A stretch of 51,823 nucleotides of DNA, taken from the IMG/VR virus record IMGVR_UViG_2721755725_000010; one strand, 5' to 3'. The DNA is from a virus (taxonomy: Duplodnaviria > Heunggongvirae > Uroviricota > Caudoviricetes). Made by a program: the position numbers. Positions 45,001 through 48,000 of the stretch are shown piece by piece (the first letter of the stretch is position 1; every line of letters begins with the position of its first letter).

Positions 45001-48000
45001 TTCATCTGTGACACGCTGAACATCGATGTTCGGGCGCTCTTTCAAAGCCCAGAATGATTCAGTGATTAATATCGTCGCCTGCTCCTGTGTCATTCCTGGT
45101 CGACATATCCAGGCATCCAGAGCCTCACGAGCCTGTTCAGGAGTGATTTTCATTGTTCAACCGCCCCGCCCGCTTCGTCTTACGATATTCGTCATAAACC
45201 TTGGGATCATACAGAAGCTCGCCGCCAGATGCCTCCTGTAGACGCATCGCGCGACCTTCAGGAACCAGCTCTTGCCATTGAGAAACAGCAGATGGGTCAA
45301 CGCCAGCAGCTTTCGCTACTTTGGCTTTCGTACCGTAAAAATTAATTACGTCTGATTTAAACATCGCACCTCCAATATTGAGTTTTCTCAAAGCTAATCA
45401 CTCAAGGAATCTCAAGTCAAGGGTTATTAAGATATCTAAATATGAACGAGAAAACTTTAGGTCAACGCATTAGAGAAAGACGTAAGCAGGTAGGCTTAAG
45501 TCAAAACGGTTTAAGCAAAGCTGCTGGCGTATCTGGCTCATCAATTTCATTATGGGAAAGTGACCATACAGCCCCGCGTGGGCAAAATTTGCATCGCCTC
45601 GCCGAGGTATTGCAATGTTCACCAACCTGGATACTGTTTGGCGACGAGGACAAAACACCAGCTCCCCCTGTTTCACTCGATAGTGCCTTAGACTTATCGG
45701 AAGATGAGTTAGAGATGCTGCGTTTGTATCGCGCACTTCCTAAATCAGAGCAACAAGCACAACTCAGCGAACTCCGCGCCCGCGTTGAGAATTTTAATCG
45801 CCTGTTCACCGAGCTATTAGAGGCTCGCAAACGCAACAAGCATCAATAATCATCCCTTCACAAAATTTTAAAGCCTTACATTTCAATGTATTGGCTTTAT
45901 CTTGCGCCAATACTTGAGTTTTCTCATCAAAAAATCTTGACGAAAAATAATGAGAAAACTAAATTACCTCCATCAACACACCGCACGGTGTTCTCAGCAA
46001 ACAGTTCCGCTACCCCGGCGTTAAGGGGAAATGAGGTCAGCATGGATACTATCGATCTTGGCAACAGCGAATCTCTGGTATGTGGCGTGTTCCCCAACCA
46101 GGACGGTACGTTCACCGCGATGACATATACCAAAAGCAAAACGTTTAAAACCGAATCTGGCGCGCGTTGCTGGTTAGCCAGAAACACTGACTGATGAGGC
46201 TGACGATGGAATTTAAAGATTTACCGTCTGATGTACAGAAAACAGCAGCTCATACATTGCATTCTGTGCTGCGAGAAATCGGGAAAGATATTGCAAGCGA
46301 GCCAGCAAAAGATCTGGCCCGGAAAATCAAGACCGCTTTCGTTGAGCTTTATAATGTTGGCACTGACTCTGAAACTGTCGAGACCAAGACCGTAAGTTCA
46401 CCAATATTCTCACTTGAGCCAGGCGTATTAGCAGGTGAAATGTGCACCGAGATTTCCAGCGAACTGCTTCCGGTAATACGAGAAGCAATTTGCCGTCGCG
46501 GTTTGGATGGAAGTTACGATCATGACGTCCTGCAAGTTCTCAGGACAATGGTGACTTCACTGGGGATTTGATCCCTGCGTCCTCTAACCTTTTGATATAG
46601 CGGTCCTCCAAGAAGCGGTAAATTTTGTCGAAATCATCTTTCCCCTCTGGTTTATTCAGAGGATTACAGGACCCGTAAGTAGCGGCATACATTTCAACCG
46701 TTTTATCAAAAATATAAGAGACAAATTCTTCTTTAGTCATATAGATTTCCTTCTTGGTTATTCGGAATAAGAAGGATACCACCTCGCCTGACGTGGTTAA
46801 AAGCAGGCACACAACACGAAAGCGCACGGCGAAGTTCGTCTCACTGTACGGTGTCGTTAAATTTAATTCGACCGTGCGCTTCCGGTTGTGGCAACCCGCG
46901 AAATGGCGCGGCGGTAAGTATGGCGGGGTTATTCCTTCCCCGTTGAGGACACCGGGTTGTCAGGTTGACCATACGCTTAAGTGACAACCCCGCTGCAACG
47001 CCCTCTGTTATCAATTTTCTGGTGACGTTTGGCGGTATCAGTTTTACTCCGTGACTGCTCTGCCGCCGTTTTTAAAGTGAATTTTGTGATGCGGTGAATG
47101 CGGCTAAGCGCACGCGGAACAGTTAAAACCAAAAACAGTGTTATGGGTGGATTCTCTGTATCCGGCGTTAATTGTTAACTGGTTAACGTCACCTGGAGGC
47201 ACCAGGCACTGCATCACAAAATTCATTGTTGAGGACGCGATAATGAAAACGTTATTACCAAACGTTAATACGTCTGAAGGTTGTTTTGAAATTGGTGTCA
47301 CTATCAGTAACCCTGTATTTACTGAAGATGCCATTAACAAGAGAAAACAAGAACGGGAGCTATTAAATAAAATATGCATTGTTTCAATGCTGGCTCGTTT
47401 ACGTCTGATGCCAAAAGGATGTGCACAATGAATTCAGCATTTGCGCTTGTTCTGACAGTTTTTCTTGTTTCCGGAGAGCCAGTTGATATTGCAGTCAGTG
47501 TTCACAGGACAATGCAGGAGTGTATGACTGCAGCAACCGAACAGAAAATTCCCGGTAACTGTTACCCGGTCGATAAAGTTATTCACCAGGATAATATCGA
47601 AATCCCGGCAGGTCTTTAAAACAGTTCCGTAATAAATATCCGGTTTCATTCTTATATGCCAGCAATGGCAGGGATTTGTTCATCCTTAAATCTGTCATGA
47701 GGTTAAAACAAAATGAGTAAAGTCTTTATTTGCGCCGCTATTCCTGACGAACTGGCAACAAGGGAAGAAGGCGCTGTGGCTGTAGCCACAGCCATTGAAG
47801 CTGGCGACGAACGCCGTGCTCGAGCAAAATTTCACTGGCAGTTCCTGGAACATTATCCGGCTGCTCAGGACTGCGCTTATAAATTTATTGTCTGCGAGGA
47901 TAAACCTGGCATACCCCGCCCTGCCCTCGATTCATGGGATGCTGAATATATGCAGGAAAACCGCTGGGATGAGGAATCCGCTTCCTTTATTCCGGTCGAA

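Follow-up and report, generated by a model that had tools for sequence, protein, structure and literature searches.

A modular early gene and a convergent small gene in a putative dicBF-type operon of a Qin/mEp460-like prophage

The window analyzed here is a stretch of 51,823 nucleotides (nt) from a virus of the Caudoviricetes (IMG/VR record IMGVR_UViG_2721755725_000010), in which the repressor gene is followed by a ydfA-like gene of 50 amino acids (aa), a gene whose product most probably has 121 aa, and a convergent 66-aa gene on the opposite strand. Judged by promoter sequence and gene order, this region is the promoter-proximal part of a repressor-controlled early-left (dicBF/P_L-type) operon of a Qin/mEp460-like lambdoid prophage. 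On the whole we find it somewhat probable that the two plus-strand genes are early-left lytic genes accompanied by an independently expressed antisense gene, the 66-aa gene, whose product may be the cognate partner of the C-terminal domain of the 121-aa protein.

Placement in a repressor-controlled early-left operon

The features of the region, in window coordinates, are as follows.
Before the repressor, minus strand: YdaT-like gene and Cro-like gene, the gene order of a Qin-type immunity region
45442-45849, plus strand: helix-turn-helix repressor gene, 135 aa
45914-45963, plus strand: putative left operator/promoter region, with operators flanking the promoter
45971-46041, plus strand: 5' leader of the predicted early-left (dicBF-type) transcript, upstream of ydfA
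46042-46194, plus strand: ydfA-like gene, 50 aa (DUF1391), with GAGG 5 nt before the ATG
46194-46571, plus strand: open reading frame (ORF) of 125 aa, or 121 aa from the likely start (from the ORF table and the raw sequence)
46540-46740, minus strand: 66-aa gene facing the 121-aa gene; AAGGA stands 7 nt ahead of its ATG
46748-46796, minus strand: conserved non-coding block upstream of the 66-aa gene, the only such block kept in two diverged loci (L003 and L004; L numbers are our labels for compared loci)
47017-47068, plus strand: dicF small RNA gene (Rfam RF00039, 72.5 bits, E=1.2e-15)
47243-47431, plus strand: dicB, annotated in an identical genome
47428-47619, plus strand: ydfD, annotated in the same identical genome
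47713-50184, in the window after ydfD: gene for an 823-aa exonuclease

The window of 51.8 kb has exactly two exact copies of the operator 13-mer TTGAGTTTTCTCA: the first lies between cro and the repressor gene (45378-45390) and the second 65 nt past the repressor stop (45914-45926). An inverted copy with one mismatch lies at 45951-45963. The second exact copy and the inverted copy bracket a sigma-70-like promoter, TTGACG-17-TAAATT (45937-45965), located between the repressor stop (45849) and ydfA (46042). When aligned with K-12, this promoter coincides with TTGACC-17-TAATCT, which is dicBp. In K-12, dicBp is a P_L-like, DicA-repressed promoter with operators in the dicA-dicBp intergenic region, and its polycistronic transcript starts 5' of ydfA and spans ydfABC-dicF-dicB-ydfDE (PMC10448788; PMC5069750); both transcription from dicBp and its repression by DicA have been demonstrated there (PMC10448788). 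The ydfA-like and 121-aa genes follow the P_L-like promoter and precede dicF, dicB, and ydfD on one strand, and because the operator-flanked promoter aligns with the DicA-repressed dicBp, they are expected to be lytic-phase genes that are silent in the lysogen.

The earlier note on this DNA had assigned the gene pair to a position equivalent to that of rexAB, which in lambda is co-transcribed with cI. The ORF table agrees that both genes lie 3' of the repressor and in its orientation, but an operator-flanked, dicBp-homologous promoter separates the repressor from ydfA, and the genes therefore would not form a rexAB-like unit co-transcribed with the repressor.

From the promoter to the ydfA start, the leader of 75 nt differs from that of K-12 Qin by a single base, though the two repressors are just 57% identical and the operators differ. 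This near-identity points to a conserved leader RNA, and positions 45971-46041 showed no significant fold (z = -0.13). On the minus strand, a promoter-like site (TTAACA-16-GAGAAT) was observed between dicF and dicB at 47151-47178; transcription starting there would read dicF in antisense and proceed towards the 66-aa gene.

Conservation of the three genes

By comparative evidence all three ORFs are genuine conserved genes, already catalogued as hypothetical proteins by NCBI and PHROG. The chromosome of E. coli strain E2863 is 100% identical to positions 45900-46900, and the NCBI pipeline calls all three genes there, as a DUF1391 protein (WP_000379591.1) and as hypothetical proteins of 121 aa (WP_001344637.1) and 66 aa (WP_000159335.1). 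The 50-aa product was rightly described as ydfA-like: it matches the DUF1391 family PF07151 above the gathering score over residues 2-48 (E=4.3e-27, 94 bits, cut-off 27.3) and also falls in phrog_751. Full-length profile matches were obtained for the 121-aa product with phrog_33007 (E=1.5e-81, 121/121 profile positions) and for the 66-aa product with phrog_34441 (E=1.5e-50, 66/66 profile positions). At least 80% of the kilobase 45900-46900 is present in ~388 of 5426 complete E. coli genomes, and the same module is carried by Escherichia phage mEp460_ev081; both the lytic and the lysogenic cycle have been confirmed for mEp460 (PMC9836094). The module was also seen in metagenome bins labelled Veillonella parvula (L009) and Geobacteraceae (L011), with 66-aa proteins 100% and 91% identical, respectively; these labels most likely reflect binning contamination by an enterobacterial prophage module.

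The coordinates of the minus-strand ORF, its ribosome-binding site, and its overlap with the 3' end of the 121-aa gene (exactly 32 nt, 46540-46571) agree with those noted earlier, and 169 of its 201 nt are outside any other gene. Homologues of the 66-aa protein reach down to 54% identity and share an invariant N-terminal MTxEEFVxYIFDKTVE. The ORF is intact in all eight distinct variants compared (eight distinct proteins, from the window, L010/L061, L011/L063, L065, L067, L005, L003, and L004), with a whole-gene ratio of nonsynonymous to synonymous substitution rates (dN/dS) of 0.11-0.33, synonymous sites being saturated in the comparisons for L003, L004, and L005. In L003 the ATG must be the start, since an in-frame TGA stands five codons ahead of it; AlphaFold2 models the protein as a two-helix hairpin with a predicted local distance difference test score (pLDDT) of 81. 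As far as these comparisons go, the 66-aa ORF is a real protein-coding gene under purifying selection, and the loss of conservation that the earlier note had named as a sign of a spurious ORF is the opposite of what was found.

Upstream of the 66-aa gene, the only block conserved between the window and L003/L004 consists of CCACnTCAGGCnnGGTGGTATCCTT and the Shine-Dalgarno sequence. It contains a short hairpin, CCACGTCAGGCGAGGTGG (46796-46779), and a segment, UCCUUCUU (46776-46769), that can pair with the Shine-Dalgarno sequence AAGAAGGA (46755-46748). RNAalifold predicted a 7-bp stem for the block, with one compensatory pair and several G-U changes that fit the minus strand, and the minimum-energy fold hides the Shine-Dalgarno sequence of the 66-aa gene in seven of eight sequences. 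Alternatively, the same block reads as a promoter with an extended -10 (TGgTATCCT), 16 nt upstream of which stands TTAACC. At the other end of the gene, a perfect 6-bp palindromic hairpin (GTCCTG-8 nt-CAGGAC, 46526-46545) spans the 66-aa gene's stop end, at the border of the overlap; the 101 nt around it fold better than shuffled sequences on the plus strand (z = -2.6, weakly structured) and no better than shuffled sequences on the minus strand (z = -0.6).

Start and modular build of the 121-aa protein

The earlier note joined the ydfA-like gene and a 125-aa gene by a stop-start overlap. The TGATG is present, with the ydfA stop (TGA, 46192-46194) and an ATG (46194-46196) having one base in common; its use as a start is what the comparison speaks against. 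The start used is most probably 46206, giving a 121-aa protein that begins MEFKD, because GAGG at 46196-46199 stands 6 nt 5' of this ATG, because the start ATG-GAA-TTT-AAA (MEFK) is conserved in all diverged homologues with GAGG, GGGG, or GAGGA 5-8 nt before it, because the phrog_33007 alignment begins at residue 5 of the 125-aa ORF, and because the NCBI pipeline chose the position equivalent to 46206 in the identical genome. The ATG at 46194 is restricted to the window type, and the sequence farther upstream is unrelated among diverged homologues. The ydfA-like and 121-aa genes would therefore be 11 nt apart rather than overlapping, and the TGATG probably arises by chance where the ydfA stop meets the Shine-Dalgarno region (ATGAGG).

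The 121-aa protein is modular, with a widespread helical N-domain, a relaxed linker, and a rare helical C-domain.
46206-46364, plus strand: N-domain, residues 1-53
46365-46451, plus strand: linker, residues 54-82
46452-46568, plus strand: C-domain, residues 83-121

An AlphaFold2 model of the protein (pLDDT 64) has helices at residues 8-24, 32-53, 88-97, and 105-119, with residues 54-82 of low confidence or disordered. The N-terminal 55 aa match four further PHROGs, whose proteins range from 64 to 212 aa, and a profile search of 1.8 billion representative proteins returned 93 clusters (at 50% identity), in nearly all of which the match is confined to positions 1 to ~55 and lies at the N-terminal end of a protein of 40-204 aa. 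The C-domain is clearly carried by few clusters, namely P0001, P0067, and P0066, plus P0135, which matches in the C-domain alone. Selection differs along the protein: dN/dS is 0.085 for the N-domain (against L067), ~0.55 for the linker (against L010, L011, and L067), and 0.10 for the C-domain (against the copy in a Cedecea prophage). The comparison with L067 indicates recombination inside the linker, because synonymous divergence (dS) is 1.75 in the N-domain and 0.11 in the C-domain of this one pair.

The N-domain family (~55 aa, starting MEFK-LP; proteins P0057-P0139) has no Pfam entry. About half of its members consist of the N-domain alone, and P0070 carries two tandem copies. A Pfam scan of ten longer relatives (142-204 aa) found no known domain in their tails.

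A cassette of the C-domain and the 66-aa gene

All fetched loci that have the 66-aa gene complete also have a C-domain, convergent with that gene and overlapping it. Twenty-seven distinct cassette sequences span the whole query; both genes are full length in 24, the small gene has 64 aa in one, and the 121-aa gene is frameshifted in two. The pattern-based collection scans consist mostly of near-identical copies, and the deep synteny rests on a handful of diverged loci, in which three arrangements were seen. In the first, found in the window and in L065, the C-domain is joined to the N-domain and follows ydfA or ydfB, with repressors that are 39% to 100% identical. In the second (L003/L004), the C-domain is fused to an unrelated N-terminus in a 129-aa protein encoded directly after an S24-type repressor, and the overlap with the 66-aa gene is 56 nt. 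In the third, a Cedecea prophage (L005/L006), the rightward operon has an ORF with the C-domain only, preceded by its own AGGAGA ribosome-binding site and flanked by cro and a cII-like gene; the usual stop codon is missing from this ORF, which continues for 109 aa. The C-domain gene points along early lytic transcription and the 66-aa gene opposes it in all three contexts. As reconstructed from these loci, the 66-aa gene and the C-domain are one mobile cassette with three upstream arrangements.

Other occupants of the slot

Seven N-domain variants were encountered, and all seven have a convergent small ORF at the 3' end.
Window type: N-domain protein 121 aa, small ORF 66 aa (PHROG 34441)
L073: N-domain protein 163 aa, small ORF 72 aa (PHROG 21180)
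L074/L075: N-domain protein 97 aa, small ORF 81 aa (no PHROG)
L072: N-domain protein 122 aa, small ORF 76 aa, not called by the gene finder (no PHROG)
L138: N-domain protein 130 aa, small ORF 79 aa (PHROG 28250)
L144: N-domain protein 66 aa, small ORF 59 aa (PHROG 17494)
L145/L146 (O157 type): N-domain protein 212 aa (phrog_2151), small ORF 69 aa, end to end (PHROG 4274)

Outside the window type the small ORFs encode 59-81 aa; five of these six overlap the 3' end of the N-domain gene and that of the O157 type abuts it. The small convergent proteins belong to at least five unrelated families. In the O157-type slot (L145, 2003-2851; L146, 1497-2345), ydfA is followed by the 212-aa gene and the convergent 69-aa gene. 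Seven places in strain 472 match the query.

The K-12 Qin prophage shares with the window a repressor, a P_L-like promoter with operators, the conserved leader, and a ydfA that is 88% identical, followed by a variable segment and then dicF, dicB, ydfD, and the exonuclease gene. Within the variable segment, K-12 has ydfB and ydfC in place of the unrelated 121-aa gene and antisense 66-aa gene, and it lacks both an annotated minus-strand gene and an N-domain gene. The products of ydfA-ydfB-ydfC in Qin are uncharacterized small proteins (PMC5069750). Megablast identity between the window and K-12 ends near 46225, and clear homology resumes near 46815 by direct alignment. The suggestion that the 125-aa gene is an unsplit form of YdfB/YdfC was rejected: BLASTP of the 125-aa product against YdfB and against YdfC gave no alignment even at E<=100, and in L065 a ydfB homologue (42 aa) stands as a separate gene directly upstream of an intact 121-aa gene. 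BLASTP of the 66-aa product against YdfC likewise gave no alignment even at E<=100.

The exonuclease gene farther downstream, whose homologues have YdfE_N, YdfE_C, and Rv2179c-like domains, is intact in the window, and the K-12 copy is cut by IS2.

A model of reciprocal expression and its alternatives

Starting from the operon placement, the conservation of the genes, and the cassette structure, we infer a pattern of expression and a partnership of proteins. While the early-left promoter is repressed, the 66-aa gene would be transcribed on its own, against the operon. Upon derepression, the early transcript would have to pass through the 66-aa gene in antisense on its way to dicF and dicB, and transcriptional collision and duplex RNA could shut off the 66-aa gene while the 121-aa protein is made. 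The outcome would be reciprocal expression of the two genes. The 66-aa protein might then be a cognate binding partner of the C-domain, most likely an antagonist, directed at leaky expression or at the same early protein from a superinfecting relative. A role in superinfection exclusion, which the earlier note had raised for this slot, would be conceivable only for the antisense 66-aa gene.

Several observations weigh against this model. Each gene can be lost without the other. The 121-aa gene is frameshifted beside an intact 66-aa gene in L141-L143 (19 contigs with that product) and in L019/L087. With the 121-aa gene intact, the 66-aa gene is interrupted by the insertion sequence IS1 at about codon 12 in L089, L092, L120, and L121 (about 2998), and it is removed by a 360-bp deletion in L111 and L117. 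The 66-aa partner is thus dispensable for survival of the lysogen, since variants with an intact 121-aa gene have lost it; a partnership that counts only while the operon is expressed may be compatible with these losses. Because the C-domain and the 66-aa gene physically overlap, their joint inheritance is in part unavoidable. The conserved block upstream of the 66-aa gene may be either a promoter or a leader hairpin, and these readings are mutually exclusive; the promoter scan called nothing above threshold upstream of the gene, and the terminator scan of 45100-47300 found none on either strand. Searches of Pfam, NCBIfam, and PADLOC with the three proteins returned only DUF1391 for ydfA and a sub-threshold NCBIfam match, and Foldseek searches of both AlphaFold2 models against the PDB gave nothing below E=1, simple helical hairpins being uninformative for structure search. 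The sub-threshold match, of the 125-aa product to an 'archaeal histone' (E=0.047), was treated as noise.

The L111/L117 deletion (at 2884; window 46590 to ~46950) takes the 66-aa gene together with its upstream block and joins the end of the 121-aa gene to a hairpin upstream of dicF. Insertion sequences hit the 66-aa gene repeatedly, with further interruptions by IS1 at codon 16-17 (L068-L070) and by an IS3-family element at codon 37 (L007, about 4111); these loci had been candidates for N-terminal variants of the 66-aa protein and turned out to be insertions, not polymorphism.

Another account, possible although we give it distinctly less credence, is that the genes are independent accessory genes: the 66-aa gene would be a self-contained moron inserted in antisense into a recombination-prone slot and the C-domain a passenger, with no interaction between the products and no regulatory role for the overlap. 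The slot is indeed highly mosaic, with homology to K-12 lost over ~46225-46815 and ydfB and ydfC in its place there; at least five unrelated families of small proteins occupy the antisense position; and either gene can be lost while the other is intact. Mere coexistence does not readily explain, however, why purifying selection acts on the C-domain itself (dN/dS 0.10), why the Cedecea prophage keeps a stand-alone C-domain ORF with its own AGGAGA beside the 66-aa gene, or why the examined loci show the N-domain and C-domain separated by recombination and the C-domain and 66-aa gene never.

In DicA-type lambdoid prophages, the slot that follows the early-left promoter could also be a polymorphic two-component system, in which a conserved N-domain carries an exchangeable C-terminal effector or specificity domain and a cognate lysogen protein encoded on the opposite strand neutralizes the early protein. 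The 121-aa/66-aa pair would then be one allele of at least seven, which might, for example, block superinfecting relatives or accidental induction. We regard this broader proposal, both as a general scheme and as applied to the pair, as rather unlikely.

A toxin-antitoxin or addiction module, with the 121-aa protein as toxin and the 66-aa protein or a 3'-overlapping RNA as antidote, is improbable. A variable domain with a co-varying small partner recalls toxin-immunity pairs, frameshifted 121-aa genes do occur with an intact 66-aa gene, and some type I toxin-antitoxin systems have a convergent 3' overlap resembling that of the pair. The opposite loss is nevertheless found in at least six contigs, in which IS1 or the deletion has destroyed the 66-aa gene and the 121-aa gene is intact; neither gene is indispensable in the repressed prophage, which argues against a classical addiction module. 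An asymmetry between toxin and antidote, considered on the basis of the frameshifted 121-aa genes, was dropped once these opposite losses had been found. Neither protein looks hydrophobic or membrane-spanning (sequences read by eye), unlike type I toxins, and the promoter ahead of a presumed toxin would in any case be repressed. The three proteins matched no toxin or antitoxin domain in Pfam, NCBIfam, or PADLOC, so that the pair has neither the domain nor the antidote that cannot be lost expected of a type II system.

About as improbable, or slightly more so, is an operon for superinfection exclusion of the rexAB kind that the lysogen would express along with its repressor. Exclusion genes are indeed known from lambdoid immunity regions, and the genes here are 3' of the repressor and share its orientation. 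Against this stand the promoter between the repressor and ydfA, which is operator-flanked and homologous to the DicA-repressed dicBp (PMC10448788), and the searches of the three proteins, in which neither Pfam nor PADLOC (E<=0.1) matched RexA, RexB, or any defence family. That the 66-aa ORF is a chance antisense ORF, for which only its shortness and want of a domain match would speak, is refuted by the conservation pattern, namely an intact frame with dN/dS of 0.11-0.33 in eight distinct variants down to 54% identity and with saturated synonymous sites, 169 of 201 nt free of overlap, a conserved Shine-Dalgarno sequence, and a full-length PHROG family.

Relation to known systems and significance

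Besides the Qin segment of K-12, the favored model, of early-left lytic genes opposed by an independently expressed 66-aa gene, touches on three kinds of known systems. Like lambda rexAB and lambdoid morons, the genes are accessory genes beside an immunity region, and like a moron the antisense 66-aa gene could be expressed from a repressed prophage. They differ in that the plus-strand genes lie behind a repressed promoter and are not expected to be co-transcribed with the repressor, in having no homology to Rex or known defence proteins, and in that the scan found no terminator for the 66-aa gene. Convergent or face-to-face units with antisense control are familiar from type I toxin-antitoxin pairs and from the lytic and lysogenic promoters of coliphage 186. 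The similarity lies in two facing units whose 3' ends overlap (by 32 nt in the window and by 56 nt in L003/L004), with one unit lytic; in contrast to those systems, both partners here are conserved and apparently soluble proteins, neither resembles a membrane toxin, and antisense regulation would be our reading of the arrangement. In polymorphic effector-immunity systems the N-terminal part is conserved, the C-terminal domain varies, and there is a small cognate protein; the slot recalls such systems in its conserved N-domain with many C-terminal tails and in the different small neighbor gene of each examined variant. The small gene here is, however, convergent and not downstream and co-oriented, its loss is tolerated, and the N-domain proteins are ~60-210 aa without a recognizable toxin or secretion domain.

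Toxic genes of cryptic prophages have been studied with the dicBF operon as a model, and placing the genes described here in such an operon alters which experiments make sense. What is new here is this regulatory placement together with a recurrent, previously undescribed pairing of an N-domain gene with a convergent small gene. If the cognate-pair reading is false, these would be ordinary mosaic accessory genes. If it is true, it would add to the known small prophage proteins a class whose members control early lytic factors or keep out related phages, and it would give access to a domain family of ~93 clusters for which Pfam has no entry.

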